A stretch of 64,000 bases of DNA from an uncultured Alphaproteobacteria bacterium (GCA_949282205.1 CASDOS010000059.1:6135-70134), one strand, 5' to 3'; counted from the stretch's first letter, positions 8,359 to 23,361 are shown. Notes: generated from the sequence alone by a model not told the origin. Numbers and translations: made by a program.

Positions 8359-9414
8359 ATGCGCATAGTAAATGTAATGATAAGTAAAATGAACGGGGGT
8401 GTTGAGCAAGCCTTCTTGGATTATAATTCAGCGTTAAAAATGCATAATCATCAAATTTTAGCGATTGTTGACATAAAAACTAAAGTAAAATCATTTATAC
8501 AAGATACACAGTATATAACAATAAATTTTAATCAATATAATTATTTTTTGATTTTTAAATTGTATAAAACAATCAAAAAGTTTCAAGCAGACATAATCAT
8601 AACACATAGTAAAAAAACAATCCCAATATTGCGTATAGTGGCAAAATGGTTAAAGATTCCACTGATAGGAGTGGCACATAATGATAAATATAAAAAGATA
8701 AATCAATGCGATGCTATTTTTTCAATAACGGAATATCAAAAAGAGTTTTTTATCCAGAAAGGATATCCCAAAGAGAACATATATGTGATTCCTAATATGA
8801 TAAAAGGCAAAATAGAGTATAAAGAAAAGATATGGCATCATCTTCCGGTAATAGGTAGTATGGGAAGATTTGATCCAATGAAAGGTTTTGATACATATTT
8901 GAATGCACTCGCTTTATTACGAAAAGAAGGAATCGAGTTTAAGGCTGTTTTAGGCGGAGATGCCCAAAAAGAATATCCGAAGGAAAAGAGGAAATTGGAA
9001 CAAATAATCATAGATAATCAGTTGGATAAAAGTGTAACATTATGTGGATGGGTAACAGATAAAGCAAAGTTTTTTCAAGATATAGATATATTTGTTCTGC
9101 CATCAAATTATGAGCCGTTTGGGATTGTTTTGCTAGAGGCGATGCAACATTCAACACCAATCGTAACCTCAGGTGCGGAAGGTCCCAAAGAAATATTTGG
9201 AAAAAACAAAGACTGCGTTTATATGTTTGAAAAAGGCAACGTTGAAGATTTAGCAAACAAATTAAGACAAGCTCTTAAAAATAGAGAGGAAACCAATCAA
9301 AAAGCTAAAAAATCATGGCAACTATGTGAGAAAGAATATAACATAACACAGGTATCAGAAAAGATAGATAAAATGATACAAAAGGTAATAATACAAAATG
9401 GTAAAGAAATATGA
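8359..9414 (+). CDS. Glycosyltransferase family 4
   Basis: EPFGIVLLEAMQHSTPIVTS motif. Confidence 0.8.
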   Translation: MRIVNVMISKMNGGVEQAFLDYNSALKMHNHQILAIVDIKTKVKSFIQDTQYITINFNQYNYFLIFKLYKTIKKFQADIIITHSKKTIPILRIVAKWLKIPLIGVAHNDKYKKINQCDAIFSITEYQKEFFIQKGYPKENIYVIPNMIKGKIEYKEKIWHHLPVIGSMGRFDPMKGFDTYLNALALLRKEGIEFKAVLGGDAQKEYPKEKRKLEQIIIDNQLDKSVTLCGWVTDKAKFFQDIDIFVLPSNYEPFGIVLLEAMQHSTPIVTSGAEGPKEIFGKNKDCVYMFEKGNVEDLANKLRQALKNREETNQKAKKSWQLCEKEYNITQVSEKIDKMIQKVIIQNGKEI

Positions 9415-10153
9415 CATTATTTATTCATTAGGTTCAAATTGTGCGTGTGCACTATACTTGAATAAGAATAATTTACGAAATACATCAGGTCCTCTGGACT
9501 GGGTTGTTGGGCTTGATTTTAAGCAAAAAATAGACTTAATATTAAATGATTTTAAGGAATACTGCAACTTAGAAGATTTAGAGATAATAACATCAAAGAA
9601 TGAATGCAACCCCCATATTTCGTGTAAAAATAAAAAAAATGGGTGTTATTTTTTTCATGATTTTCCAATGAATGTTCCTTTAGAAACATCATACCACCAA
9701 GTTGCTGAGAAATACGAAAGAAGAATTAAAAGATTTTATGATAATATATATACTAAAGAAAAAGTACTTTTAGTATGGTTCAGCTTAGACATAGAGACAC
9801 CGCTAGAAGACATAAAGCAAGCAAGCGAAAAGCTAAACAAAAAATTTGGAAAAGAGATAAATTTGCTATGTATAGAGCATAATGAAAATTTATCGGAAAA
9901 AGAAATAAAAATTCAAAAGTTATCTAAAAATGTCACCAAAATAGAATTATATGCTAAAAATCATGAAAACATAGAAGGATTTAGTAAAGGGAATGTAAAA
10001 AAGTGCAACAAAATATTTAAGCAATATGCGCTAAAACAGCCATTTGCTAAAGTTGTCAAGAGACAGGTAATAAAAATTTTATGTAATTTAATACCTATAA
10101 AGAGTTTAAGAAAAAAGTGTCGTAATCAATGGTTATATGAGAAAAATAAGTAG
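9398..10153 (+). CDS. DUF1796-type putative papain-like protein
   Basis: N-terminal YSLGSNCACALYL...GPLDWV signature. Confidence 0.5.
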   Translation: MVKKYDIIYSLGSNCACALYLNKNNLRNTSGPLDWVVGLDFKQKIDLILNDFKEYCNLEDLEIITSKNECNPHISCKNKKNGCYFFHDFPMNVPLETSYHQVAEKYERRIKRFYDNIYTKEKVLLVWFSLDIETPLEDIKQASEKLNKKFGKEINLLCIEHNENLSEKEIKIQKLSKNVTKIELYAKNHENIEGFSKGNVKKCNKIFKQYALKQPFAKVVKRQVIKILCNLIPIKSLRKKCRNQWLYEKNK

Positions 10154-11129
10154 AAGAAAACAAATGCCTAAAATATCAATAATCATACCTGTCTATAATG
10201 CTGAAAAATATCTGGAAATGACATTAAATTCTGTGCGAACTCAGACATTTACGGATTACGAAGTAATTTGCATGAATGATGGATCTACAGATAAATCATT
10301 ACAAATATTAGAAAAATTTGCAAAACAAGATAATCGCTTCAAAATATATAGCCAATCTAATGCAGGAGGTAGTGAGGCTCGCAATAATGCGATAAAAAAG
10401 GCAACTGGTGAATATATTGCATTTTTAGATAATGATGACATATATCACCCAAATTACTTAGAAATATTGTTTTATAATATAGAAAACTACGAAGCAGATG
10501 TTAGTTGTTGTTCATATGTACGTTTTGAAGGAGAGGAGGACTATAAATTTAATCAAGATAAGGATACTAAAAAGGGCATATTTGTTTCAGAAAATCCTTT
10601 TATAGATAAATTTAAGCGAAAAAAGAAAATAGAAACCCTGATGTGGACCAAGCTATATAAAAAAGAATTACTTCAAGAAATAAAATTCTCAGAAAAATTA
10701 CCCGCAATCAATGATATATTATTTAATGTAGAAATATTATTGAAGAGTAAAAAGTTAGTGCAGACGAAAGAAAAATTAATTGCATATCGCATAATTCCAA
10801 CTTCTCAAACAATGAAAAAATTAACATTAAATCGCTTAGAAGAATATAGAAACCTAGCCATAGAGTTAAAACAATTATCAAAAAGATATGAAAAATATAA
10901 CAATATAATAGAAAAAATAACCGCCAACTACATCTATGGAATGTATGTAACAGAGGTAAAAGACAAATATAAAATAGCAGATGAACCAGAACTATACAAA
11001 AAAATCGCACAAAATATAGCAGCCCTAAAAGAACAGAAAATATTTAATCCGCAAAAATTAAAACTTAGTCGACAAATACAATTATTTTTCTTTTTAAGAA
11101 AGATAAAGAAAACAAATGAAGCAGAATAA
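10137..11129 (+). CDS. Glycosyltransferase family 2
   Basis: ISIIIPVYNAEKYLEMTLNSVRTQTFTDYEVICMNDGSTDKS. Confidence 0.8.
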   Translation: MRKISRRKQMPKISIIIPVYNAEKYLEMTLNSVRTQTFTDYEVICMNDGSTDKSLQILEKFAKQDNRFKIYSQSNAGGSEARNNAIKKATGEYIAFLDNDDIYHPNYLEILFYNIENYEADVSCCSYVRFEGEEDYKFNQDKDTKKGIFVSENPFIDKFKRKKKIETLMWTKLYKKELLQEIKFSEKLPAINDILFNVEILLKSKKLVQTKEKLIAYRIIPTSQTMKKLTLNRLEEYRNLAIELKQLSKRYEKYNNIIEKITANYIYGMYVTEVKDKYKIADEPELYKKIAQNIAALKEQKIFNPQKLKLSRQIQLFFFLRKIKKTNEAE

Positions 11130-11139
11130 TAACAAACAA

Positions 11140-11162
11140 AAAAGCTTCCCGAAGGAAGCTTT
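11140..11162. terminator. Bidirectional hairpin terminator
   Basis: aaagcttccttcgggaagcttt palindrome between convergent genes. Confidence 0.5.
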
Positions 11163-11165
11163 ATA

Positions 11166-12041
11166 TTAAAACTCAACAACTTGAATAATTTCACCCTTTT
11201 GGTAAATAACCACTTTGGTTAATTCGCCTTTAGAATTAAATTCCTTAGCAGTTCCGTGCAACAAATCATTTTTACGCTGAGCTAAAATTTTAGGTTTTTC
11301 ATTTTCATAGTAAGAATATGCCGGACCTTCACGTTTGCCGTTAACATATTCCACATAAGTAGTCAAATGATTTTCAGGAGTATAAAAGCGGGAAGGACCA
11401 TGCAATTTTCCTTTTTTGTAAGTAATGGAAGATTTAACGGCTCCGTTGTCGTAATATTCCTCAAACACGCCGTTTTTCTTTCCGTTAATATAGCTCCCCT
11501 TGCGTAACAAATCGCCATTAGGATAATAAGCCAATTGAGCGCCGGAGAGTTTTCCCTTACGAAAATAACTTATTTCCTGTTCAGTTCCATTTTGATAAAA
11601 AGTAATTGTTTTTCCATGAGGAAGACCATTTTTATATTCTGCCTCCATAATCACGTTTCCATTATCATCAAAAGCCTTATAAAGACCGCTGATTTTTCCG
11701 TTTACAAAGTGGATTTCTTCTTTAAGTTGCATATTATCGGCATAATTTTGATAAACACCTGTAATAGGTTTATGAGCGGCATCATAGCGAATACCGTTTT
11801 CTTCAAAAGAAGTGTCATCGGAATAAAGGGTAGTGAGTTGCGCAACATGGCAAGCGGAAAGCAAAAAAAGCACCGCGCCTAAACCGGCGATTTTCCGAAC
11901 AGCAGATTTACTCTGAGCCAGTTTTCGTAAAATCAATTTTCGCAAAGCAATTTTTCTGGTCGCAAATTTCCGCGCAGCGGTAGTTAAAATATCCTTTTTC
12001 GCCATATTACACCTCATCAAAAGCACAAGAAAAATAGTCAT
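11166..12041 (-). CDS. MORN-repeat (YwqK-like) protein, N-terminally membrane anchored
   Basis: Repeated YxNGxxxxExxYxxGKxxG modules; hydrophobic segment near the N-terminus. Confidence 0.7.
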   Translation of the reverse strand: MTIFLVLLMRCNMAKKDILTTAARKFATRKIALRKLILRKLAQSKSAVRKIAGLGAVLFLLSACHVAQLTTLYSDDTSFEENGIRYDAAHKPITGVYQNYADNMQLKEEIHFVNGKISGLYKAFDDNGNVIMEAEYKNGLPHGKTITFYQNGTEQEISYFRKGKLSGAQLAYYPNGDLLRKGSYINGKKNGVFEEYYDNGAVKSSITYKKGKLHGPSRFYTPENHLTTYVEYVNGKREGPAYSYYENEKPKILAQRKNDLLHGTAKEFNSKGELTKVVIYQKGEIIQVVEF

Positions 12042-12157
12042 AAAAAAGTTAAAATAGGGTAAACAAAAATAAAGCTGTAGAAAAAATAAGAAAAAAATGG
12101 CAATTAGGAGAGAGTACGTTATTCTAAAGCGGGAGTAAAAAAAGCGAGGAAGAAAGG

Positions 12158-12628
12158 ATGAAATATAAAAAAGTGTTGTACACCAAGATTTCTCCGGAAA
12201 AAAGCAAGCGTCATCGACAATTTTACGATCGCCGCGTCAAAAAAGCGTTTATTCAATATTTAGCATACAGCGGATGGTTTGACGGCGTATTGGAAGAAAA
12301 AGAAATAGAAGAGGCCAAAAAAGGCTATCTTCCCCCGGATTTGGATGTTCATCACATTTTTCCGTTATCGGGATCAGAATCAATGGAAGTACATTCATTT
12401 ACCAATATGTCGGTTATACACAAATCAACTCATCTGGCGATAAATCGCCAGATTTTTTATCCGCAATTAAAAGATGTGAGTAATATGCAAGAGGGAGAAA
12501 CACGAGAAATACTAATTCCGATATTTAAGCCCGTAGACGCGGGAAGAATAATTGCGATACGCAATCGTCAGACCAAGCGCCCATGGCAAATGTTAAAGAA
12601 TATATCCTTAGCGGGGTATACGCATTAA
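12158..12628 (+). CDS. HNH-motif protein
   Basis: DVHHIFPL...H pattern; weak. Confidence 0.45.
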   Translation: MKYKKVLYTKISPEKSKRHRQFYDRRVKKAFIQYLAYSGWFDGVLEEKEIEEAKKGYLPPDLDVHHIFPLSGSESMEVHSFTNMSVIHKSTHLAINRQIFYPQLKDVSNMQEGETREILIPIFKPVDAGRIIAIRNRQTKRPWQMLKNISLAGYTH

Positions 12629-12692
12629 AGAGAGGAAGCGGATATAACAAAGCGTTTAAAATAAATAATTTAGAAACGAAGGAGCAAGTAAA

Positions 12693-13052
12693 GTGTTAAG
12701 ATTTTTAAGTTTAATAGTCGGCGCCGTTTTAATAACCACGCCGGTGGAAGCTGGTAAGAAGAAACTTCCCGCGTTAGAAGACAATAAAGCCTATGTTTTA
12801 TATTTAGAGGGCTGTCCGATATGCAACCAAGCGCTTGAATATATAAACGAGAGATATTTTACGCGTCCGGATGTTGTCAGAGTAAATATAGAAACGGAAG
12901 AAGGGCAGGCATTATTAAAACAATGCGCCAAGAAGTTTAATTTTACGCGTATATTGGCCCCGGTGATATGTGTTGGCGACAAGTATTTTATGGGGTGGTC
13001 AGGGAGAGCTGCGAAAGACTTTGACCGCTATTTAATAGATTTACATGAATAA
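12693..13052 (+). CDS. Secreted thioredoxin/glutaredoxin-like protein (CPIC motif)
   Basis: Signal peptide followed by LEGCPICNQ CxxC motif. Confidence 0.5.
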   Translation: MLRFLSLIVGAVLITTPVEAGKKKLPALEDNKAYVLYLEGCPICNQALEYINERYFTRPDVVRVNIETEEGQALLKQCAKKFNFTRILAPVICVGDKYFMGWSGRAAKDFDRYLIDLHE

Positions 13053-13114
13053 GGGGAAGGATATATATTGAAAACCGAGAATAAAGTTATATTTAAGAAG
13101 TCAAAGGAGAAGTA

Positions 13115-13792
13115 ATGGAAGAAGAAGCGCTGTTTGCTCTAAGTAATGGATTATACGTTTTGGGAGCAAAAGAAAATGAGAGATATGTAGGTTCGCTGGT
13201 AGACGCCGTTTCGCAAGTCGCCATGGGGCCCGACATGATAATTTTATCGTGTATGAACAGTAGTTATACGAAGCAGGCGATAGAAGAAAGCGGAGTTTTT
13301 TCCATAAGTGTTCTGGCCAAATCGACAGATCCTCTTGTGGTAGCAAATTTCGGTTATCAAAGCAGTCGCGATATAGACAAGTGGAATAATGTGGTAAAAG
13401 AAATCAGAGATGACTTACCATATTTATCAACGGCAATGGCGAAGATACGCGCCCGTGTCGTAAGTAAAGAGGTTTTTCCGAACAATACCTTATTTATAGC
13501 CGAGGTAGAAGATGCCTTTGATTGTAAAAAAGGGGAAAAACCGCTGACGTATCATGATTACAGAAATGGATATAAGGAGAAAGTAAAGATGGCCTATCAA
13601 TCAATAAAGAAAGAGGATGAAGAAATGAAGTCAAAAGGGAGCCTCCAAGCAGGTTTGTCTGAAAAAAAATGGGTATGTACGGTATGCGGATATGTTTATG
13701 ACGGAGACATTTCGTTTGAAGAGTTGCCTGAAGACTGGGTATGTCCGTTGTGCGGAGTTGGTAAGGAATTATTTGAATTAAGAGAAGCCTAA
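13115..13792 (+). CDS. Flavin-reductase-like domain fused to C-terminal rubredoxin
   Basis: C-terminal [13 protein letters not shown]...[10 protein letters not shown] (two CxxC, rubredoxin). N-terminus resembles the flavin-reductase-like FMN-binding fold. Confidence 0.7.
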
Positions 13793-13802
13793 GCGCAAAA
13801 CA

Positions 13803-13830
13803 CCCGTATTCAAGTGAATACGGGTGAATT
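13803..13830 (+). terminator. Hairpin terminator
   Basis: cacccgtattca-cttgaatacgggtg palindrome followed by T-rich run. Confidence 0.5.
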
Positions 13831-13847
13831 TTTAAGCAAAAAAAGAA

Positions 13848-14447
13848 CTATTGAGCTTTCGGATAACCGACAGCTTCAGTCATAACGACTTCTGTATCGC
13901 CGTCAAGATTGAGAGCTTGTTTGATTTCATCACGGTCATAAAGTCCGCGAACGACGCATTTTAAGTTTTCGGAAGCGCAATAGAGGCTTGCATTTTGATA
14001 CATAGAGCCTGCGTGCATTTCACCATATTTTTTATCTTTTGTAACGAATAAAAGATGAACAGGGGCATCAAGTGCAAATTTTTGATCTTTAGCCAAGATA
14101 TAGCGAAAATCATCGGAGCCGAGTTGTTTCAAAGCATTATTTTTAGCATCATAGATATAAGAACCGGAAGGAATCAAGACATATAAATCAATATCTTGCC
14201 GATTTCTGGCGGTAGGAACAACACGTTTACCGTCTTCGGAAGAGATTCCCCAAGTAGCCCAGAGCAAATCGGATAAGTGTTTATCAGAAAGCATTTTTGT
14301 ATCAAAAGTACGTCCGGAACGACGCGCGGCAATAGCATCCATAAGAGGGATACCGCCGGAAGTAGAGGGTTCGGGCAATTTAATATCAGCGGCATAGACG
14401 GTAGAAGCGGAGAGCATCATCATCGCTCCAAGAACAAATTTTTTCAT
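13848..14447 (-). CDS. Secreted nitroreductase-family protein
   Basis: Signal peptide MKKFVLGAMMMLSASTVYA, then RRSGRTF nitroreductase N-motif. Start moved to the ATG that has an AGGAGGT ribosome-binding site. Confidence 0.6.
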   Translation of the reverse strand: MKKFVLGAMMMLSASTVYAADIKLPEPSTSGGIPLMDAIAARRSGRTFDTKMLSDKHLSDLLWATWGISSEDGKRVVPTARNRQDIDLYVLIPSGSYIYDAKNNALKQLGSDDFRYILAKDQKFALDAPVHLLFVTKDKKYGEMHAGSMYQNASLYCASENLKCVVRGLYDRDEIKQALNLDGDTEVVMTEAVGYPKAQ

Positions 14448-14623
14448 AAGACCTCCCAAATAAAAATAGATTACAACGAGTAAAATATAGTCCCCCAAAG
14501 CGTAAAAAGTCTTTAACAAAACCGATTTACCCACAAAAAAGGGGATAAGTGAAGAGAAATATTGCGGATTTGGGCGGTTATGGGGCTAAATAAGGGGAGA
14601 TAAAAAACTAAAAAGGGACGAAG

Positions 14624-15358
14624 ATGAATCGGCGTGAATTCATAATCAATTCGCTGATGACGCTGGGCGGAATGACATTGTTATCGGCGTGTAAGGAAGA
14701 GAAACAGATAAGGGAAAAGAAAGGAGAAGATAAGATGAAAGTATTGATGATAAACGGCAGTGCGCATGAAGAAGGCTGCACCTATACAGCTTTGAGTGAA
14801 GTAGCTAAGGTATTGAAAGAAGAGGGAATAGAGAGCGAGATTATTCAACTTGGCGCCAATGCGTACAGAGATTGTGTCGGTTGCGGCGGATGTCGTAAAT
14901 TGGGACATTGTGTATTTACGGATGATATCGTCAATGAGTTGGTAGAGAAGGCAAAGCGAGCTGATGGTTTTATATTCGGGACACCGGTGTACTATGCGCA
15001 TCCGTCAGGAAGGTTGTTAAGTGTGTTAAATCGCGCATTTTACTCAGGCGGCGCCGCATTTGCCTATAAACCCGGAGCGGCCATAGCATCAGCCAGACGA
15101 GCCGGCACCATTGCATCGGTGGATGTAATAAACAAGTATTTTACGATTAATAACATGCCGGTAATATCCTCAACTTATTGGAACGAAGTGCATGGTAATA
15201 CGCCAGAAGAGGTAAAACAAGATGCGGAAGGAATGCAGACCATGCGCAATTTAGGTAAAAACATGGCGTGGGCCCTAAAGTTGATAGAAGAGGGTAAGAA
15301 GTTGGGTATTCAAACCCCAGAACCGGAAAGAGGAGCAAGAACCAACTTCATTCGCTAA
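14624..15358 (+). CDS. NADPH-dependent FMN reductase / iron-sulfur flavoprotein-like. Alternative start at 14735 (MKVLMINGS) has a strong ribosome-binding site.
   Basis: MKVLMINGSAHEEG flavodoxin-like start plus CVGCGGCRKLGHC cysteine cluster. The upstream 37 aa resemble a Tat/lipoprotein signal (RREFI...LLSAC). Confidence 0.6.
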   Translation: MNRREFIINSLMTLGGMTLLSACKEEKQIREKKGEDKMKVLMINGSAHEEGCTYTALSEVAKVLKEEGIESEIIQLGANAYRDCVGCGGCRKLGHCVFTDDIVNELVEKAKRADGFIFGTPVYYAHPSGRLLSVLNRAFYSGGAAFAYKPGAAIASARRAGTIASVDVINKYFTINNMPVISSTYWNEVHGNTPEEVKQDAEGMQTMRNLGKNMAWALKLIEEGKKLGIQTPEPERGARTNFIR

Positions 15359-15426
15359 AAAAAGATTGACAAAAAAATAAAAAGAGTACAATTTAAAAGC
15401 TGTCTAACAATTAAAGATATATTTTT

Positions 15427-15792
15427 ATGGAAAATTTTATTATGAGTAGTTCCGTACTGCTGAATGCTCAGTGTTGCGGAGGAGATGTTTGGGGGATTTT
15501 ATTATTAGCCTGCTTTCTTTTTCTGCTTGCCGCAATCATAGCAAAGATAGGAGATGTTCGTTGTGAAAGCAAACGACAAGAAAAATTTGCTGATTATTGT
15601 CAGAAACGCTCAGCTTTTTATCGCAAGGAACGAGAAAAAGTTCTGAATTATTACCGAGAAAAGGCTCAAAAAAACGGTCATCTTACGGATAAAGAGCTTG
15701 AGGAAGCCCGTTTCTACATGGAAATTAACAGTGGTGGTGAAGATGGCTGGGAAGAAGAATATAAAAAATTCCGTCAAGAATTACATTGTTAA
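15427..15792 (+). CDS. Small membrane protein (1 TM + charged C-terminal tail)
   Basis: Hydrophobic WGILLLACFLFLLAAIIA; own TTGACA/TACAAT promoter and a terminator of the same type as the J-gene cassette. Confidence 0.5.
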   Translation: MENFIMSSSVLLNAQCCGGDVWGILLLACFLFLLAAIIAKIGDVRCESKRQEKFADYCQKRSAFYRKEREKVLNYYREKAQKNGHLTDKELEEARFYMEINSGGEDGWEEEYKKFRQELHC

Positions 15793-15810
15793 AGCAATCA
15801 AGCAATTAAT

Positions 15811-15845
15811 AAACGCCTCTTGAGAAGGGGCGTTTTGCTTTTTAA
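15811..15845 (+). terminator. Rho-independent terminator (cassette copy 1)
   Basis: aaacgcctcttgagaaggggcgttttgcttttt. Confidence 0.65.
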
Positions 15846-15871
15846 AAAGATGCTACGAATAAACAAAAAAC

Positions 15872-15930
15872 TTGACAAAAGAGAAGAGGGTGTTAGGATA
15901 ATGCCAATTAACAATTATTATGAACCTAAA
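15872..15930 (+). promoter_or_regulatory. Conserved promoter (TTGACA-16-TGnTAGGAT) plus conserved leader CAATTAACAATTATTATGAACCTAAAA with uORF ATG at 15920
   Basis: Near-identical copies upstream of all four J-domain genes. Confidence 0.6.
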
Positions 15931-15941
15931 ACCTTTATGTT

Positions 15942-17474
15942 ATGAAAAGATTATTATTTATTTTGAGCTGTCTAATGATAGTCAGCCTAAGCTATGCAGA
16001 CACAGTTTACGGAAGGTTAGAAAAACTGGAAGGAAACTGTGCAACGGTACATGTATATCCAGACAATGGTACACCGCAAGTTGTTACGTTAAATTTAAAA
16101 GACACCGAAGATAAATATCTGCACCAACCGCTACGAGCAGAGGGGCAAGGTGTTTTTGTTTATAATGGCAATACTTTAAGTCAAGTAGATGAAGATGCAG
16201 CAAGGCGTATTTTACAGGTAACCTTACATGAAATTTTTTGTATGACTTTGGTTCTAGTGGGGGTTGCGTTCATTTTATCTTTGAAATTTAAGCGTATAGA
16301 AGCACAGATTATAAGTAAAAAAAGGCAACTGCTGGTAAAAATACAATATGGCGTACTTTGCCTTTCTTTATTTATAACAGCTAATGGTGTTTTAGGCCTT
16401 TGGTTAAGACCTCAATTAGAGCTAGTGAATTATGGTAGAGTATCCCGACTTGAGCGGTGGGCATATATTATAGAAGATGAAAATGGTAATAAACAAATTC
16501 ATGATATATCGGGATCTGTTTGGGATATCTATTATTACGCCGATGGAACCTGGGGCAATCCGACTACGGAAGGTGGAATAATTAAAGGTGGAAACAGTTA
16601 TAAGCTCTATCAAAGCTTCGGCAAAGATAGAAAAGTGATAGAAGCAACGATACGGTACGTTAATGAAAAAACAGCCTTTCAGCAGCGCGTATTAAAATAC
16701 CTAATGTTTATCGTATGGATATGTACTTTTATACTGTATATACTACCTCTATTAAGGGCAAGAATTAGACATCTGAGGCGTACCAAGGTAGAAACGGCTC
16801 GTCTGAAAGTAGAAAAAAAACGTCAAGAGCAAAAACTCAAAAAACAGCCTGAGTATCGCCGCTTTTGTGAAGAGCTTGTGACAAAGTTCTGGGTTGACTA
16901 TTTAGACAGTCCTGAAGAAACATCGGTATTGTTGGCACGTCTAAAGGTAGCCTTGCAGAACAGCGGTTATCTAAGATGGCAAGAAGAGTTTTATGATGTC
17001 ATAGCCATGCGAGCAAAAGAAAGTACTCGCCCACCGAAAGAGCAACGTCAAAAAGCATCAAATCAAGTAAAAGACGAAGAGTTGGACGATATTCGGATAA
17101 ACTTCAATGGTTTGTTTGTAACGGCTGCGCAGTATCGGATATTAAGCTCTGATATCAACGCTCAATCATTAAGTCTGGAAGATTTGATAATTTACTGTCG
17201 CAAGTTGGCGGAAAAGATGCCGGAGTTTCGGGATTTCTTGAAAGGAAAAATTATCAGAACGCCTCAAGGTTTAATTGATAACAATGAGGCTTATGCGTTG
17301 TTTGGACTGACGTTTGAAACATTGACGGAGGATAAATTGAAACAAGTGTATCGTTATTTTGCACAACTTTATCATCCTGACAAAAATCCAAATGCTAAGG
17401 CAAAGGAAATGTTTCAAAAAGTACAAAGTTACCATGCATATTTAAAAGAGGAACTCCGCCGCAAAGTTGCTTAA
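15942..17474 (+). CDS. Membrane J-domain protein (signal peptide + ~3 TM N-terminal region, C-terminal DnaJ-type J domain)
   Basis: C-terminal ...AYALFGLTFETLTEDKLKQVYRYFAQLYHPDKNPNAKAKEMFQKVQSYHAYLKEELRRKVA (HPD motif). Its C-terminal 220 aa are paralogous to the next gene. Confidence 0.8.
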   Translation: MKRLLFILSCLMIVSLSYADTVYGRLEKLEGNCATVHVYPDNGTPQVVTLNLKDTEDKYLHQPLRAEGQGVFVYNGNTLSQVDEDAARRILQVTLHEIFCMTLVLVGVAFILSLKFKRIEAQIISKKRQLLVKIQYGVLCLSLFITANGVLGLWLRPQLELVNYGRVSRLERWAYIIEDENGNKQIHDISGSVWDIYYYADGTWGNPTTEGGIIKGGNSYKLYQSFGKDRKVIEATIRYVNEKTAFQQRVLKYLMFIVWICTFILYILPLLRARIRHLRRTKVETARLKVEKKRQEQKLKKQPEYRRFCEELVTKFWVDYLDSPEETSVLLARLKVALQNSGYLRWQEEFYDVIAMRAKESTRPPKEQRQKASNQVKDEELDDIRINFNGLFVTAAQYRILSSDINAQSLSLEDLIIYCRKLAEKMPEFRDFLKGKIIRTPQGLIDNNEAYALFGLTFETLTEDKLKQVYRYFAQLYHPDKNPNAKAKEMFQKVQSYHAYLKEELRRKVA

Positions 17475-17493
17475 AAGCTCAGTTAGAATAAGC

Positions 17494-17530
17494 AAAACGC
17501 CTCTTTCAAAAGGGGCGTTTTGCTTTTTTA
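17494..17530 (+). terminator. Rho-independent terminator (cassette copy 2)
   Basis: aaaacgcctctttcaaaaggggcgttttgcttttttaaaaag. Confidence 0.65.
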
Positions 17531-17558
17531 AAAAGATGCCGACAATAAACAAAAAAAC

Positions 17559-17633
17559 TTGACAAAAGGACAAGTCGTGCTAGGATAACACCAATTAACA
17601 ATTATTATGGACTTAAAAATGTGTAAATTATGA
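17559..17633 (+). promoter_or_regulatory. Promoter TTGACA-16-TGCTAGGAT plus conserved leader; 8-codon uORF (MDLKMCKL) whose TGA overlaps the J-gene ATG as ATGA
   Basis: Leader CAATTAACAATTATTATGGACTTAAAA at 17592-17618. Confidence 0.6.
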
Positions 17634-18361
17634 GAATATTTAACGAAAAAACAATGAGCGATTCGGAACGTGAAAGAGCTAGAAAGAAAGTTGAAACAGA
17701 AGTCAAAAAACAAGCGGCGGAGAAACAAGCAGAAAGTTACCGCCTTTGTGAAAAGTTGACAGAAAGTTTCTGGAAAGATTTTTGGAACGGCGCAGAACTG
17801 TCCATACTAGTCAACCGTATAGAGTTTGCATTGCAAAACAGCGGTTACAAAGGATGGAAAGAAGAATTTTTCGATGTAATCGGTGAAAAAATCATAGAAA
17901 TACCGGAACAGTTCATTCACAACAGAGAGAAACTCAACGGGAGTGAACAGGGTTTTGACATAGATAATCTCGGCGATATTCGTATAAACTTTAATGGTTT
18001 GTTTGTAACGGCTGCGCAGTATCATATATTGAGCTGCAATGCGAAAGCACAGTCACTATGCAAGGAAGATTTACTCGTATTGTGTCGTAAGTTGGCGGAA
18101 AAGATGCCGGAATTTGCCAATTTCAAAGAGGAGCATTCAATTCAGCTCTATGTTGCGACAAAATCCACCAATGAAGCCTATGCGTTGTTCGGTTTGACAT
18201 TTGAAACACTAACGGAAACAAGTCTGAAACAAGCGTATCGCCGTTTGGCGCAGATGTATCATCCGGATAAAAACAAAGAAGCCTATGCAGCAGCAATATT
18301 CCAAAAAGTGCAGAAGTATCACACATATCTGAAAAGTGAACTCCGCCGCAAAGTTGCTTAA
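17630..18361 (+). CDS. Soluble J-domain protein (paralog of the C-terminal half of the preceding gene)
   Basis: DIRINFNGLFVTAAQY...LCRKLAEKMPEF... shared with 15942-17474; C-terminal J domain with YHPDKN. Confidence 0.8.
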   Translation: MRIFNEKTMSDSERERARKKVETEVKKQAAEKQAESYRLCEKLTESFWKDFWNGAELSILVNRIEFALQNSGYKGWKEEFFDVIGEKIIEIPEQFIHNREKLNGSEQGFDIDNLGDIRINFNGLFVTAAQYHILSCNAKAQSLCKEDLLVLCRKLAEKMPEFANFKEEHSIQLYVATKSTNEAYALFGLTFETLTETSLKQAYRRLAQMYHPDKNKEAYAAAIFQKVQKYHTYLKSELRRKVA

Positions 18362-18375
18362 AAGCTCAGTTAGAA

Positions 18376-18466
18376 TAAGCACAAATGCCTCTTGAGAAAG
18401 GGGCATTTTGCTTTTATAAGCCAAAGAAAAAAGCTGTTCCAAAGAGGAACAGCTTTTTTTTACTGA
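18376..18466. terminator. Two hairpin terminators. The first is cassette-type (aatgcctcttgagaaaggggcatttt); the second is bidirectional (aaaaaagctgttcc-aaagaggaacagcttttttt).
   Basis: Inverted repeats with flanking T- and A-tracts between convergent genes. Confidence 0.6.
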
Positions 18467-18478
18467 GTTTAGAAAAAG

Positions 18479-19903
18479 TTAATTAATAATCCTATCACTA
18501 TATACCCTCCCGGAATAAGCCCCGGTAAGTCGAGAGTGCCGTTCAGGAGCAGAATAGTGCGCACCTTCGCAAGCATAAGTAGTTTCAATCAATTCTTCGA
18601 CAAGTTCTGCAATTTTGTTATATTTTATGCAGGCTTCTGCGACGGAAAGTTTACCTTCTAAGATTTCTTGTCCAAGTTGCGCGACATCAACGCCGTCAAT
18701 TTTAGCGAAACCGGCGGCCGGAAGAGCAAGAATACGTTGCAATTCCACAGAACGATTTTTTTGCAAGGATGTACCGGCAATATTAATCAAGAAATTTTCA
18801 CCCGAAGAGTAAGCATACGCTCTTTTCTTACCAAGTTTACTCAAGAACTGAGCGGGAAAATCTTTCCCCCAGCGTTCAAAGACTTCCTGCGGTGCGAGAA
18901 TAATCTGTTCATCCCCACAGTCACGGAAGAAGAAACTGGTTCTGACCATCTGAGCATCCAACAATTCTCCTTTTCCGGAAATACAAAACCGTTTGATACC
19001 TTTCCGAGCCATTTGTTGAAGTTTTGTCAAATCTTCCTGACGCACAAGTTGTCGAGCACGATCATACGGTAAATCAGCAAAACCAATTGTTAATTTGATT
19101 TTACAGCGTTTCGTCCGTCCATTTTCGTAAGTAACTTGTTCAAATGTACGCAAATCATCGCTAAGCAAATCGTACTGTCCGTTACGAACGGCCTGAACGA
19201 AAGCGGCAAAGACGGAATGCAAATTTCCGGACATTTCAAATTTTTCATTACACTGAATACCATGTCCTTGAATAGCGCAATTAAACGGAACATAGATATC
19301 CGTATGTTCATCTAAAGCAATAATAAACGAACGCGCCTCCTGATCGACCAAGACATTCATTTTGGCAGGAAGTCCATCAAGAACATTAGGGAAGAGAGTC
19401 TTCGCCTGAGCAACTGGGACAGGTTTCCATCCGGTTAATGGCGGCCGACGAAACATATTAACAATAGTAATCGGTTTCACGGGGCAATACTCACGTTTTC
19501 CGTTGCTGTAATAGTTGACAACATAATCGGAATAGAGTTTTGCCATTGGGACATTAAGCGCCATAATCATCAAATCCTGAAGCGAATACTTTTCGGTATC
19601 AAACATAAGGTTTTGATTAATTCTAAGCCCCCAAACCCGTTCGGAATAGACCTGAACGGCGGGAGATTTACTGTCATACAGAGGCAAAAGACCGGTATTT
19701 GAAGCTAAGAGCTTTGGGTTCTGAGCTCTGACCGGAAATTTCGAAGATCTTCTCTGTAGTTCAGCGACGATAGCCGGATACGAACATTCAGATTTAATAA
19801 CAGCCGTAGAGGACGTTTGGTTCAATCCATTTTGGTCCAAAAGACGAAACACAGCATCAAAGCACAAAGTGCTCATTTTTGCTAAACTCATGTTTTTTTC
19901 CAT
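18479..19903 (-). CDS. Conserved hypothetical ~474-aa protein, 'large paralog A', family unknown
   Basis: Start moved to the conserved MEKN. The 50-aa extension in the track is a translation of the AT-rich promoter, which is shared with J gene 3. Paralogous to 21753-23183 (IKSECSYPxIV, KPITxVNxFxRPP, YVPFNC, KNGQY). Confidence 0.6.
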   Translation of the reverse strand: MEKNMSLAKMSTLCFDAVFRLLDQNGLNQTSSTAVIKSECSYPAIVAELQRRSSKFPVRAQNPKLLASNTGLLPLYDSKSPAVQVYSERVWGLRINQNLMFDTEKYSLQDLMIMALNVPMAKLYSDYVVNYYSNGKREYCPVKPITIVNMFRRPPLTGWKPVPVAQAKTLFPNVLDGLPAKMNVLVDQEARSFIIALDEHTDIYVPFNCAIQGHGIQCNEKFEMSGNLHSVFAAFVQAVRNGQYDLLSDDLRTFEQVTYENGRTKRCKIKLTIGFADLPYDRARQLVRQEDLTKLQQMARKGIKRFCISGKGELLDAQMVRTSFFFRDCGDEQIILAPQEVFERWGKDFPAQFLSKLGKKRAYAYSSGENFLINIAGTSLQKNRSVELQRILALPAAGFAKIDGVDVAQLGQEILEGKLSVAEACIKYNKIAELVEELIETTYACEGAHYSAPERHSRLTGAYSGRVYSDRIIN

Positions 19904-19959
19904 AATAGTAAAAATTAATAAGTGAAACATAGTTATAATTAGGTAGCGTCTAACATAAG

Positions 19960-20076
19960 ACAGTATAAACAGAATGTCAACACATTTGTCAAAATAGCGC
20001 ACAAAAAAACTTGACAAAATGTAAGAAGTAGATAAGATAAAAGCAATTAACAATTATTATGGACTTAAAACTTTAA
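19960..20076. promoter_or_regulatory. Divergent promoter region: minus-strand TTGACA-17-TTTATA for large paralog A; plus-strand TTGACA-16-TAAGAT plus conserved leader and 5-codon uORF (MDLKL) for J gene 3
   Basis: Hexamers read directly; leader copy at 20044-20070. Confidence 0.55.
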
Positions 20077-20081
20077 GGATT

Positions 20082-20888
20082 ATGACAAAATTATTTGTGA
20101 TTATCGTTGTATTGTTCGTTATTGTTGCTTTTGTGGTAGCGCATATATGGAATAAGGCTAGAAAAGAGCGAGAGCAAAAAATAAGACGAATAATAGAAGA
20201 ACAAGAAAAAAAAGAACGTGAAAGACAAGAATTTGAACGACAGGAACGCGAACGTTTGGAACGTGAACGCCAAGAGCGCTTAAAAGAAGAAGCTATGAAC
20301 AGAATGCGTGAACAAAAAGCACGTGAACGCCAAGAGCGCTTAAAAGAAGAAGCTATGAACAGAATGCGTGAACAAAAAGCACGTGAAGAAGCAGAACGTA
20401 TAAAAAACAAGTATGCGAAAGCTAAAGTTTTCTTTCAGGGCATATGGGTAACGCAGCAACAGTTGTCGTATTTGGCTAATTTTTCAGAAATAAGCAGTAT
20501 GCAAGGCAAGAAATTACGAGATTTCTTAAGTAATTTAGGAAAGACCAATCCTCTCTTTGCAGATTTTACCCAAGAAGCTGAAAACAGTCAAAAAGAAAAG
20601 GAAAAAGCAAAGTGGGACAGTTATAGCCAAACGAAACAAAATCATGGTTATAGAACAACTTCCACAAACACTGGTCAGGCCCAAAGCGCAAACGTCAATT
20701 CTTTCTATCAAATGTTCGGCTTAACTCCAGAAACACTGACATCCGAAAGTTTAAAAAGAGCTTATCGAGAGTTGGTTAAAAAGTATCATCCGGATAAAAA
20801 TAAAGAGCCGGATGCTGCCGAAAAATTTCAAAGAGTACAGAGGTGTTATAAATATCTCAAAGGAGAATTACACCGCAAGACAGCCTAA
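20082..20888 (+). CDS. TM-anchored coiled-coil J-domain protein
   Basis: N-terminal TM helix, ERQERLKEEAMNRMREQKAR duplicated, C-terminal J domain (YHPDKNKEPDAAEKFQRVQRCYKYLKGELHRKTA). Confidence 0.8.
   Translation: MTKLFVIIVVLFVIVAFVVAHIWNKARKEREQKIRRIIEEQEKKERERQEFERQERERLERERQERLKEEAMNRMREQKARERQERLKEEAMNRMREQKAREEAERIKNKYAKAKVFFQGIWVTQQQLSYLANFSEISSMQGKKLRDFLSNLGKTNPLFADFTQEAENSQKEKEKAKWDSYSQTKQNHGYRTTSTNTGQAQSANVNSFYQMFGLTPETLTSESLKRAYRELVKKYHPDKNKEPDAAEKFQRVQRCYKYLKGELHRKTA
20261..20380 (+). repeat. Perfect 60-bp tandem duplication (2 copies) inside the J-domain gene
   Basis: acgtgaacgccaagagcgcttaaaagaagaagctatgaacagaatgcgtgaacaaaaagc x2, 100% identical, in frame. Confidence 0.9.
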
Positions 20889-20908
20889 CCGTTCAATCAA
20901 TTAAGTAC

Positions 20909-20942
20909 AAACGCCTCTTGAAAAGGGGCGTTTTGCTTTTTA
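20909..20942 (+). terminator. Rho-independent terminator (cassette copy 3)
   Basis: aaacgcctcttgaaaaggggcgttttgcttttt. Confidence 0.65.
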
Positions 20943-20970
20943 AAGAAGCATCAAGTGTTGCACAAAAAAC

Positions 20971-21030
20971 TTGACAAAATAAAAGAAGGCGATATGATAA
21001 AAGCAATTAACAATTATTATGGACTTAAAA
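20971..21030 (+). promoter_or_regulatory. Promoter TTGACA-16-TATGAT plus conserved leader with uORF ATG at 21019
   Basis: Leader CAATTAACAATTATTATGGACTTAAAA. Confidence 0.6.
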
Positions 21031-21040
21031 TTTAAGGATT

Positions 21041-21691
21041 ATGGCAATCGTTATGATTTATATGCTTTTGATTTTAGTGTTGGCTGCTATAGTTTTTTTC
21101 TTATATCTGATATCCAAGACAATAAGAGAAGATAATGAATACTACAAAAGGCAAGCTGAACAAGAGGCAAAATTCCGCCGAAATGCTAAAGAAAAAAGAA
21201 AACAAGATACTGAAAATATACATCAAAACATAGATGATAGTTTTGAAGAATTACATAAAAGTCTTGAAGAATTACATAATAGTTTTGAAGAATTACATAA
21301 AAGTCTTGAAGAATTACATAATAGTTTTGAAGAATTACATAAAAGTCTTGAAGAATTACTGAAGAGTTTGGAGGAATTAAGAGCGGTTCTGGAAGAAAAG
21401 CAGCGTGCCAGACAAGAATATTGCCGAAATAGTTACAATAACAACAGTAATCGTGGCAGCAATAGTAGTAATGGCGAGAGAACTTACAAAAGGTTAGAAG
21501 GCGTTTATAAAACTTTTGACTTAACTCCCTCGACATTAACCGAAGCAAGCTTAAAGCAATCTTATCGTCGCTTGGTTCAGCTTTATCATCCAGATAGAAA
21601 CAAAGAACTGAATGCAACTGAAAAATTTCAAAAAATACAGTCGTATTACAGTATCTTACAGAAAGAATTGAAAAGTAAAAATGCTAGATGA
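21041..21691 (+). CDS. TM-anchored repeat-containing J-domain protein
   Basis: N-terminal TM; SFEELHKSLEELHN repeats; C-terminal J domain YHPDRNKELNATEKFQKIQSYY. Confidence 0.8.
   Translation: MAIVMIYMLLILVLAAIVFFLYLISKTIREDNEYYKRQAEQEAKFRRNAKEKRKQDTENIHQNIDDSFEELHKSLEELHNSFEELHKSLEELHNSFEELHKSLEELLKSLEELRAVLEEKQRARQEYCRNSYNNNSNRGSNSSNGERTYKRLEGVYKTFDLTPSTLTEASLKQSYRRLVQLYHPDRNKELNATEKFQKIQSYYSILQKELKSKNAR
21239..21358 (+). repeat. 42-bp (2 x 21 bp) in-frame tandem repeats, ~2.8 copies
   Basis: agttttgaagaattacataaaagtcttgaagaattacataat repeated. Confidence 0.85.
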
Positions 21692-21696
21692 AACAA

Positions 21697-21730
21697 AAAA
21701 AAGACGTTCCCTCAAGGAAACGTCTTTTTT
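21697..21730. terminator. Bidirectional hairpin terminator
   Basis: aaaaaaaagacgtttccttgagggaacgtcttttttt palindrome. Confidence 0.6.
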
Positions 21731-21752
21731 TATGATACACGATTAATATGAC

Positions 21753-23183
21753 CTAGTCACTAGGGTGAATGCGACCGGTAATGCATCCAATTCTTTCCGG
21801 AGAAGAGAAATGCACTCCTTCTACAGGCATGGTTGATTCAAAATGATAGGCCAGCGTGTCAAACGCGTTGAAAAGAACTCTACCTAATCCAACCGCGGCA
21901 CAACCTGCGGCACTAACACCGACTTTAGCTACTTGAACACTTAAATGAGATGAAACTTTGGCTCCAACTTTTGCAATACGAGCAATTTTCTTAAGATTTT
22001 TAAACTGTTCAAGTTCATGTCCGGAGATATTGCGAATATAATCGTTGCTATATTGACAATAATCAAATTTTCGGTCTTGCACCAAAAAGTTTAAGACGTC
22101 TTCAGAAAAATCGCGTCCCCAAGATTCATACACAAACTCAGGCATCAAAAGCACACGTCGTTTAGTTGCTTTGAAATTTTTACTGTTGATGATGTTATCA
22201 GAACAGATAATATTTCCTTTCACATCAACAGAGAACAATCTTTCCCCACGCAAAAAACGATTTTTTAATTCAAACTGATCTTGCACCAGAGGAAGAGCCT
22301 GTTCAAATGTCAAATCAACATATCCAACCTTAAGTTCCAACTCATTTGTACCGGAATAAAGGGTAGAAGAGTAGGGTTCTCTGGTATAGTAACCACGTTC
22401 AAAGCAGTGAAGATTTGGATTTTGTGCCACTTGCTCATATTGTCCGTTTTTAAGCATGAGAGCAAACTCATGGAATAAGGGTTGCAAATTACCGAAACCG
22501 TTAAGTTTTTCAACAATCGGATCGCAGAAATCCGTATTAATCGGATTGCCGTTAATCATACAGTTAAACGGTACATAGTGATCAGAAGTTTCATCCTGAG
22601 CAATAACCAGAGTTTCAGCATTAGGGTCAGTCAGCAAGCGCCAATTTTTAGATAAGACATCCGGATAATCTTGAGCGAGCTTAGCAGTTTCTTCAGGGAA
22701 GAAGCGTTTGGCGTCATCAAAATCAATTCTGAACCAATCAGCCATCGGAGGTCTTTTAAAACGATTAACCAAGGTAATCGGTTTCGCATTTTTTACCACG
22801 CGTCGTCCGTTGGCATGATAGCAAACAATTTTGTCGGAAAAGACCTTTGCCATAGGAATATTAAGGGCATATCTCATTAATGAACCCAAGGCATAGTTAC
22901 CGGCATCAAAAGCAAGCATATTACCGATTTTTAACCCCCAGATACGTTCACGCAGAACAACCGGAGAAGTTTCCGTTCCAACTTTTGCCGGAAGCAAATT
23001 TGCATTAACCTCAGGCAATTCGATTACCTTATCATGTAAAGCCGGAACAATTTCGGGATAAGAGCACTCAGACTTAATCAACGCAATGTTGCAAGATTTT
23101 GGCTGAATTTTTTGCAGTTCAAAAATAGATTGCAGACAAATCCAATAGGCTTGCGCAAGAGTTAAACTTGTATTTTTTTCCAT
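21753..23183 (-). CDS. Conserved hypothetical ~476-aa protein, 'large paralog B'
   Basis: Start at the conserved MEKN. Paralog of 18479-19903; its own TTGACT-16-TATACT promoter is on the minus strand. Confidence 0.6.
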   Translation of the reverse strand: MEKNTSLTLAQAYWICLQSIFELQKIQPKSCNIALIKSECSYPEIVPALHDKVIELPEVNANLLPAKVGTETSPVVLRERIWGLKIGNMLAFDAGNYALGSLMRYALNIPMAKVFSDKIVCYHANGRRVVKNAKPITLVNRFKRPPMADWFRIDFDDAKRFFPEETAKLAQDYPDVLSKNWRLLTDPNAETLVIAQDETSDHYVPFNCMINGNPINTDFCDPIVEKLNGFGNLQPLFHEFALMLKNGQYEQVAQNPNLHCFERGYYTREPYSSTLYSGTNELELKVGYVDLTFEQALPLVQDQFELKNRFLRGERLFSVDVKGNIICSDNIINSKNFKATKRRVLLMPEFVYESWGRDFSEDVLNFLVQDRKFDYCQYSNDYIRNISGHELEQFKNLKKIARIAKVGAKVSSHLSVQVAKVGVSAAGCAAVGLGRVLFNAFDTLAYHFESTMPVEGVHFSSPERIGCITGRIHPSD

Positions 23184-23361
23184 AAAAGTAAAAATTAATA
23201 GTGAAACAAAAAGATAAATAAAACACAAGAAGTATAGGATAGTTAGACAAAAAGTCAAGTAAAAAATAAAATTAGAAACTCGAGAAAACATCATTGACAA
23301 AAGAAGAAAAAAACTTCACAATAATAAGAAAGGAAAGAAAAAGAGGAAAGGAGAGGACACG

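Follow-up and report, generated by a model that had tools for sequence, protein, structure and literature searches.

Tandem multigene families that combine a conserved 5′ expression region with variable coding bodies are exemplified by the vlp/vsp lipoprotein genes of Mycoplasma and the omp-1/p28 genes of Ehrlichia and Anaplasma. Among the elements that control expression from the 5′ side of a gene, CIRCE has an inverted repeat and ROSE has stable hairpins, while the known S1-type enhancers depend on base composition. The J-domain protein DjlA, in turn, is laid out with an N-terminal membrane anchor and a C-terminal J-domain. The J-domain repertoire of Escherichia coli comprises DnaJ, CbpA, HscB, DjlA, DjlB and DjlC (PMC8215388). 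Here, we describe a locus that bears on all of these systems, found in a stretch of 64,000 nucleotides (nt) from an uncultured Alphaproteobacteria bacterium (GCA_949282205.1 CASDOS010000059.1:6135-70134), which we refer to as the window. In this locus, four tandem genes for J-domain proteins, J1 to J4, each follow a copy of the same short promoter-leader module. We consider it likely that this repeat is a co-duplicated expression cassette of a lineage-specific tandem J-domain multigene family.

The four modules lie within region 15300-21800 of the window, each of them 5′ of a gene with a C-terminal J-domain. A consensus scan called promoters of the type TTGACA-16-TAGGAT, TAAGAT or TATGAT at all four sites; in each copy, 10-11 of the 12 hexamer positions are matched and the spacer measures 16 nt, which makes them σ70-type promoters by consensus. 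The block AAAAAACTTGACAAAA is found exactly at 15865, 17552, 20004 and 20964. The leaders share the 27-mer CAATTAACAATTATTATGGACTTAAAA, which occurs without mismatches at 17592, 20044 and 21004 and with two mismatches at 15905; no further match exists in the 64 kb at up to three mismatches, where 0 are expected by chance. Three of the four modules are preceded by a rho-independent terminator, an 11-pair stem followed by TTTTGCTTTTT, that is, a GC-rich hairpin with a U-run. The consensus scan found such hairpins at 15811, 18383 and 20909, and a repeat finder added the copy at 17496. Copy 3 does without a terminator because it sits in a divergent promoter region, facing a divergent gene. A previous inspection of the window, made by a model from the DNA alone and called the sequence-only reading in the following, had described four shared terminator-promoter-leader units; this stands for the promoter-leader part of all four and falls for the terminator of copy 3. 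Its coordinates and sequences were correct, apart from one distance in copy 3 and the alleged unrelatedness of the coding sequences, both of which are taken up below.

All cassette features are on the plus strand. In copy 1, the terminator (15811-15846; 11-pair hairpin and T-run, repeat family D6) follows a small gene at 15427-15792, and the promoter (15865-15899) consists of an A-tract, TTGACA at 15872, a 16-nt spacer and TAGGAT. Its leader (15905-15941) contains the conserved block at 15905-15931 and an ATG at 15920, which opens an out-of-frame open reading frame (ORF) of 64 codons. Copy 2 comprises a terminator (17496-17531) of the same repeat family, detected as inverted repeat I4 with arms that are 90% complementary, a TTGACA-16-TAGGAT promoter (17552-17586) and a leader (17592-17629) with an upstream ORF (uORF) at 17607-17633. 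The latter encodes MDLKMCKL, and its TGA overlaps the ATG of J2 as ATGA, just as the sequence-only reading had it. Copy 3 has a TTGACA-16-TAAGAT promoter (20004-20038) and a leader (20044-20081) whose uORF (20059-20076, MDLKL) was thought to end 3 nt before the gene; the actual distance from its stop to the ATG of J3 is 5 nt. Copy 4 consists of a terminator (20909-20944), returned by both the repeat finder and the consensus scan, a TTGACA-16-TATGAT promoter (20964-20998) with 11 of 12 hexamer matches, and a leader (21004-21040) with an ATG at 21019 and an out-of-frame ORF of 38 codons. A fifth copy of the D6 terminator (18383-18418) is located 3′ of J2 and has no promoter after it; a C-G to T-A double change in its stem is compensated, leaving the hairpin intact.

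The four genes downstream of these cassettes match the Pfam family DnaJ at their C-termini with 36-55 bits (cutoff 27.8), and an HPD motif is present in every complete family member, which identifies them as class C J-domain proteins. J1 (15942-17474, plus strand, as are all four; 510 amino acids) has a signal peptide, an N-terminal part with several transmembrane (TM) segments and a C-terminal J-domain with HPD (Pfam DnaJ at residues 451-508). J2 (17630-18361; 243 amino acids) also ends in a J-domain. J3 (20082-20888; 268 amino acids) combines an N-terminal TM segment, a charged repeat region and a C-terminal J-domain, and J4 (21041-21691; 216 amino acids) a TM segment, a coiled coil encoded by 21-nt tandem repeats (family D1) and a C-terminal J-domain. 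The notion that these coding sequences are unrelated had to be abandoned: J1 and J2 are 56% identical over 230 amino acids, J2 and J3 38% over 154, and J3 and J4 57% within the J-domain only; it is just the N-terminal membrane and coiled-coil parts that differ. In the expression-cassette reading, which we hold to be probable as a whole, the J genes constitute a lineage-specific tandem family of membrane-anchored class C co-chaperones with a DjlA-like layout. Orthology to DjlA itself was rejected, the NCBIfam model NF006948 giving 24-26 bits against a cutoff of 162. A PADLOC search yielded weak matches of low-complexity models to the J4 coiled coil only, nothing for the other proteins and no defense-system assignment.

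The repeat regions of these proteins deserve a separate remark. In J4, a 21-nt unit is repeated in tandem and in frame about seven times at 21231-21379, encoding EELH[KN]S[LF] heptads, and the ortholog of J4 in a related locus (L004; related loci are given L numbers throughout) is 21 amino acids shorter inside the repeat, with 195 amino acids compared to 216 in the window. J3 carries a perfect tandem duplication of 2 × 60 nt at 20261-20380 (family D8). The length of the coiled coil therefore varies between relatives.

Within the cassette, conservation is distributed as a mosaic. Averaged over all pairs of the four window copies, identity amounts to about 0.93-1.0 in the −35 block, where copies differ only in the length of the A-tract, 0.45 in a 13-nt spacer, 0.86 in the −10 hexamer, 0.60 in the discriminator, 0.96 in the 27-nt leader and 0.51 in the stretch from the leader to the ATG. 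Alignment of the four intergenic cassettes thus confirms their near-identity for the −35 block and the leader, not for the spacer. The same mosaic recurs in 16 copies from at least 5 genomes, which we refer to as clade I. Two checks are unbiased with regard to the leader sequence, namely a promoter-only scan and locus L014, which was reached through a large protein encoded next to the J genes (large paralog A, described below): in L014, both J genes have the −35 block and all 27 leader positions (27/27), even though large paralog A and J4 of this locus are 72% and 49% identical to those of the window, respectively. More distant arrays were reached through J2 homologs with 40-46% protein identity. 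They comprise three tandem J genes beside a canonical dnaJ (L016/L019), five in tandem (L017) and three in a human-gut metagenome (L018), and all of them keep the terminator hairpin, the arrangement TTGACAAAA-16-TAnnAT-AAAGYC-CAATTAAAAATTATTAT and (A/G)ATT directly before the gene ATG. The −35/−10 arrangement with its 16-nt spacer is kept in all related loci. Variable spacers between invariant blocks point to purifying selection on the blocks rather than to gene conversion alone.

The cassette is also specific to its genes. A search with the leader pattern through GTDB, each species being represented by one genome, returned nine exact matches on seven contigs from four metagenome-assembled genomes (MAGs), all of uncultured Alphaproteobacteria; seven of the nine precede complete genes with a C-terminal J-domain and HPD, and the remaining two precede J1-like starts cut by contig ends. 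The promoter-only search of the GTDB loci added one more copy, with a 1-nt insertion in its leader. When 188 kb of fetched sequence were scanned with a leader profile, the hits fell on J-gene upstream regions only, with one exception: at L009 5079-5109 (minus strand), a diverged leader, GATTATTATGAACTTTAAATTTAAGGATTATGG, lies 5′ of a 135-residue multi-TM gene without J-domain (4674-5081, minus strand), directly upstream of a J gene. Within arrays, the leader is therefore not strictly confined to J-domain genes. The sequence-only reading had asked for further leader copies in the genome and reckoned with the case that the leader is common genome-wide before unrelated genes; the copies found lie upstream of J-family genes, and neither the GTDB matches nor the profile scan reveal such a wider distribution. 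The cassette is confined to a clade of uncultured Alphaproteobacteria, and every whole-genome match is upstream of a J-family gene. The J2 protein is also encoded on ENA metagenome scaffolds. In JGI metagenomes, a degenerate leader pattern gave 14 matches, all of them AT-rich chance hits with neither promoter nor J gene, so that the lineage appears to be absent from this collection, and two patterns gave 0 matches in viral contigs.

Comparisons between strains or species indicate what else the repeats may do. L007 and L014 are 96.8-99.1% identical, and L007 lacks 2.39 kb containing J2, large paralog A and the J4 promoter. At the junction, the alignment blocks overlap by 70 nt, which correspond exactly to the promoter-leader, and the J4-like gene of L007 carries a J2-type spacer, meaning that the spacer signatures are swapped between genes. 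Relative to the window, L004 and L008 both lack J1, J2 and large paralog A, with overlaps of 105 nt and 67 nt, respectively, inside the cassette. L002, which is 99.6-99.9% identical to the window, has a 3.2-kb deletion of 19930-23162 (J3, J4 and the coding sequence of large paralog B); here, the 46-nt junction (L002 4312-4357) lies in a second conserved leader, ...TTAATTTTTACTnTTATGGAAAAAAA, common to large paralogs A and B. Three of the four indel junctions thus fall into the promoter-leader repeat and one into the large-paralog leader. Between its anchors, the small gene upstream and an epimerase gene downstream, the array contains 1-4 J genes and 0-2 large paralogs. Together with the spacer swaps, the four independent comparisons lend weight to the earlier proposal of cassette shuffling by homologous recombination, and they support the view that the promoter-leader repeats are sites where strains gain and lose genes. 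In one MAG (SI.A54 bin112), the loci L005 and L006 are identical from the −35 block into a J1-like gene and differ in the upstream sequence; this break at the cassette is suggestive of strain heterogeneity or of a fork in the assembly at the repeat.

Regarding translation, an SD-like (Shine-Dalgarno-like) motif is present in 34 of the 59 long ORFs of the window; about 42% do without one and are AT-rich upstream. J1, J2, both large paralogs and the small gene belong to the latter, and J3 and J4 have AAGGA just 2 nt from the ATG. The J leader is an unstructured, AU-rich segment without a usable SD motif.

From these observations, a mechanism can be sketched. Each J gene would be a monocistronic unit of its own, with an intrinsic terminator and a strong σ70-type promoter in which an A-tract directly precedes a perfect TTGACA, followed by a 16-nt spacer and TAnGAT; the A-tract presumably resembles a proximal UP subsite. 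Judging from the spacing, transcription would start at the first A of AATTAAC and yield a 5′ untranslated region of about 37 nt, AU-rich and unstructured, whose first ~17-27 nt are conserved far beyond the neighboring sequence. The cassette would have been copied along with the genes and kept by purifying selection plus occasional gene conversion, placing one common expression signal over all family members. Most probably, this signal is read in the DNA, between −45 and about +20, by RNA polymerase or a regulator, since the untranscribed discriminator and the −35 flanks are conserved, and/or in the single-stranded RNA, where it would serve to load ribosomes independently of an SD motif, since the leader is SD-less and unstructured. 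Finally, as direct repeats whose junction overlaps measure 67-105 nt, the copies probably also act as crossover points; crossovers between cassettes would delete genes, duplicate them and re-pair promoters with other coding bodies, rendering the array hypervariable between strains. The transcription start, the strength of the promoter and the molecule that reads the leader are what we infer from sequence features here.

One could alternatively suspect a structured cis-regulatory RNA, for instance a riboswitch or a thermometer of the ROSE or fourU type; in genes related to chaperones this would make sense, and it would fit the shared RNA element envisaged in the sequence-only reading. In copies 3 and 4, a weak AU hairpin (CUUAAA/UUUAAG) can indeed form and touch the AAGGA just 5′ of the start codon, but it falls in the variable part of the leader. 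Rfam returned no match at gathering score, and at E <= 1 it matched terminator hairpins only and no leader; RNAalifold found 0 conserved pairs in 11 copies; and among 200 shuffles each, 199 fold better than the 71-nt 5′ end of J1 and 197 better than that of J2 (z = +1.7 and +1.8, respectively). The 5′ ends of J3 and J4 fold like shuffles, and the single-sequence z values range from +1.8 to −0.6 over the copies. As neither folding nor Rfam detects a shared element, we deem a structured RNA extremely improbable. Control by the uORF, as also proposed before, would mean that ribosomes start at the leader ATG (MDLK...) and that J translation follows by termination-reinitiation or coupling. This fits with the ATG being invariant in all 16 clade-I copies, with its context ATTATTATGGA, which is like the SD-less true starts of neighboring genes (TTATGGAAAA), with a constant distance of 21-24 nt to the gene ATG and with the ATGA overlap in copy 2. 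Yet every neighboring base is invariant as well, so that the ATG is no better conserved than the 26 bases around it, and the frames it opens have little in common: in clade I, they span 5, 8, 26, 31, 38, 42 or 64 codons or continue in frame into the gene (L006, L008), and their frame with respect to it may be 0, 1 or 2, with orthologs disagreeing. The J3-type uORF, for example, has 5 codons in the window and 31 in L010, and is an in-frame fusion in L008. When the distant arrays are included, the length range is 2-64 codons, and the ATG is lost in several leaders although the leader core is kept: the homologous position is ATA in L016/L019 (3/3), L018 J305 and L017 J328, and an ATG is likewise missing there from L012 and from the remaining two L018 leaders. 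L017 retains it in four of five copies, in two of which the uORF is no more than ATG-AAC-TAA. Over all arrays, neither the start codon nor a peptide or stop-to-start geometry is conserved, so that support for a conserved uORF mechanism is lacking. We judge uORF control improbable, and the ATG may still have a local role as a ribosome-loading site.

The blocks could also owe their identity to recent duplication or gene conversion among tandem paralogs, that is, to concerted evolution, and have no function of their own. Recombination between the repeats is evident from the indel junctions and from the J2-type spacer on the J4-like coding body of L007, and in L008 and in L010, two promoters of one genome share their spacer. 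Within a single genome, however, the 13-nt spacers are only 23-69% identical between flanking blocks that are nearly so (a 1-nt difference in the A-tract and the two leader mismatches of copy 1), which counts against conversion because conversion tracts would have homogenized the spacers too, and the blocks persist across lineages whose coding regions retain 40-50% amino-acid identity. Concerted evolution as the sole cause consequently has little probability in our view. The leader might also be the operator of a dedicated DNA-binding regulator on +1 to +20, overlapping the RNA polymerase footprint and switching the whole J family. The conserved block runs on from the −10 hexamer and includes the untranscribed discriminator AAAGYC, and A-tracts flank the −35 hexamer, so that constraint appears to act at the DNA level; the core contains AATT-N3-AATT, palindromic 4-mers ~7 bp apart, and conservation extends to clades whose J proteins share only 40-46% identity. 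Against an operator stand the lack of extended dyad or direct-repeat symmetry, the failure to recognize by eye a match to CIRCE, the CtrA site (TTAA-N7-TTAA), the DnaA box or the σ32 consensus, and the absence of a regulator gene linked to the arrays in any locus; we regard it as rather unlikely. Several points also weigh against the expression cassette itself. For the promoter, the transcription start and co-regulation, the evidence consists of consensus matches; in clade I, most copies came from searches with a pattern containing the leader, which inflates its apparent invariance; and the spacers shared by two promoters of one genome in L008 and L010 imply that part of the identity reflects gene conversion and not selection. 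Moreover, the exact conservation of 17-27 nt exceeds the need of a generic AU-rich S1-type enhancer and therefore suggests a specific partner, while the window offers no dyad symmetry, known operator consensus or antisense partner: on the minus strand, the 27-mer has no match at up to three mismatches, and a 14-mer has two at up to two mismatches, about the number expected by chance. It is tentatively conceivable that the core CAATTAAMAATTATTAT (+1 to +17) is the recognition site of a dedicated trans-acting factor, an RNA-binding protein, small RNA or repressor, that gates the whole, quickly diversifying J family. If so, it would represent a new cis-regulatory motif defining a 'J-domain regulon' in human- and animal-gut Alphaproteobacteria, possibly linked to the orphan protein of ~475 amino acids described below. 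On balance, we favor the co-duplicated expression cassette.

A number of further candidates were rejected. By eye, neither an IHF site nor an integron attC was recognized in the cassette. Promoter inversion was dismissed in the same way, as there are no flanking inverted repeats, and so was phase variation via the A-tract, which lies upstream of the −35 hexamer, so that a change in its length leaves the hexamer spacing unaltered. A mobile repeat, such as a miniature inverted-repeat transposable element or a repetitive extragenic palindromic element, or an integron cassette is at odds with the finding that the inverted repeats are terminator stems only and that orientation and position relative to the array genes are constant. 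It is further disfavored by the indel junctions, which are in the promoter-leader and not in the hairpin, and by the occurrence of an integrase beside the arrays only at the distant L011. There, within 8948-21461, a distant J gene and a large paralog (56% identical to large paralog A) adjoin genes for a GH108 lysozyme-like protein, a zeta toxin, a phage-type integrase and a type I restriction-modification methylase, surroundings that look like a mobile-element context. A sub-threshold Rfam match to Thr_leader at 18373-18462 (35 bits, cutoff 55) is an artifact of two adjacent terminator hairpins with U-runs, that of J2 and another at 18427-18459. Concerning heat shock, comparison by eye sets the family −35 CTTGAC and −10 TAnGAT against the CTTGAA-type −35 and CCCCATNT-type −10 of σ32 promoters. 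In two of the distant loci (L016 982-2290 and L019 3693-5001), the J array is divergent to a canonical dnaJ gene (372 amino acids, with zinc-finger and C-terminal domains). Upstream of this dnaJ in L016, we recognize by eye a σ32-like CTTGCA-N15-CCCTAAAT, unlike the family promoter, which suggests that the J family does not simply belong to the heat-shock regulon.

The J genes are interspersed with two large genes on the minus strand. Large paralog A (18479-19903) encodes an orphan protein of 474 amino acids and is convergent with J2 and divergent from J3; large paralog B (21753-23183) encodes 476 amino acids with 32% identity to it. Despite this low protein identity, the two genes are nearly identical over ~46 nt that cover the 5′ leader and the first codons, located at 19884-19929 in A, the region of the recombination junction of L002, and at 23163-23208 in B (both minus strand). 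The orphan family of ~475 amino acids accompanies many J arrays, with 10 matching clusters among 5.8 billion proteins. Large paralog A has no family hits, and searches of Pfam, NCBIfam and PADLOC returned no match for the large paralog; its AlphaFold model has a pLDDT (predicted local distance difference test score) of 56.6, and Foldseek found nothing in the PDB at E <= 0.001. At 18427-18459, beside the J2 terminator, lies a bidirectional terminator that serves large paralog A.

Upstream of the array, the region 15359-15792 (plus strand) contains the small TM protein gene (15427-15792; 121 amino acids, no J-domain), which is preceded by a degenerate promoter and leader, AAAAAGATTGACAAAA ... 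TAACAATTA ... TTATGGAAAA, and whose terminator is that of cassette copy 1. We rejected it as a remnant of the J family, finding no detectable relation. As noted in the sequence-only reading, TTATGGAAAA stands at the starts of this gene (15425), of large paralog A (19896, minus strand) and of large paralog B (23176, minus strand). The window holds six copies of this motif where 0.89 are expected, the other three being at 4683, 13298 and 45825 (all minus strand); half of the six are thus starts of SD-less genes in the J locus.

A literature search returned nothing on this J family or on the leader motif. Both are undescribed in the searched literature, and the underlying principle is familiar; the cassette does not open a new class of mechanism. 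It does offer a natural example of how short conserved expression cassettes may both co-regulate and remodel a tandem family of Hsp70 co-chaperones in an uncultured gut lineage, with strain-level gene gain and loss that can be read directly at the repeat junctions. In practical terms, the leader motif provides a handle for finding further family members, for testing SD-independent initiation in Alphaproteobacteria and for searching for a regulator.

Set against the known systems, the locus shows a characteristic mixture of features. As in CIRCE/HrcA and ROSE, a conserved element is located between the promoter and the start codon of chaperone-related genes, but the J leader has neither the inverted repeat of the former nor the stable hairpins of the latter. 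The leader ATG and the ATGA overlap of copy 2 recall leader-peptide systems and ATGA-coupled mini-ORFs, from which the J leader differs in that peptide, length, frame and stop position are not conserved and that many members are missing the ATG. Being short, unstructured and AU-rich, without a usable SD motif where 34 of 59 genes have one, it resembles the AU-rich, SD-independent leaders and S1-dependent enhancers; unlike these, it comprises a specific conserved sequence of 17-27 nt, which implies sequence-specific recognition. On the protein level, the J family resembles E. coli DjlA and the class C proteins in its N-terminal membrane anchor and its C-terminal J-domain with HPD, and differs from DjlA in forming 1-5 tandem paralogs per locus, in its variable N-terminal parts and in the pairing of many loci with the ~475-residue orphan. 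The vlp/vsp and omp-1/p28 families, finally, encode surface antigens, whereas the products of the J array are cytoplasm-facing co-chaperones; the conserved end of the J proteins is the C-terminal J-domain instead of a signal peptide, and the J cassettes have no phase-variable tract between −35 and −10 and no site-specific recombinase nearby. What they have in common with these families is a near-identical promoter-leader for each paralog, fast-diverging coding regions with in-frame tandem repeats, and a copy number and order that are altered by recombination between the conserved flanks.

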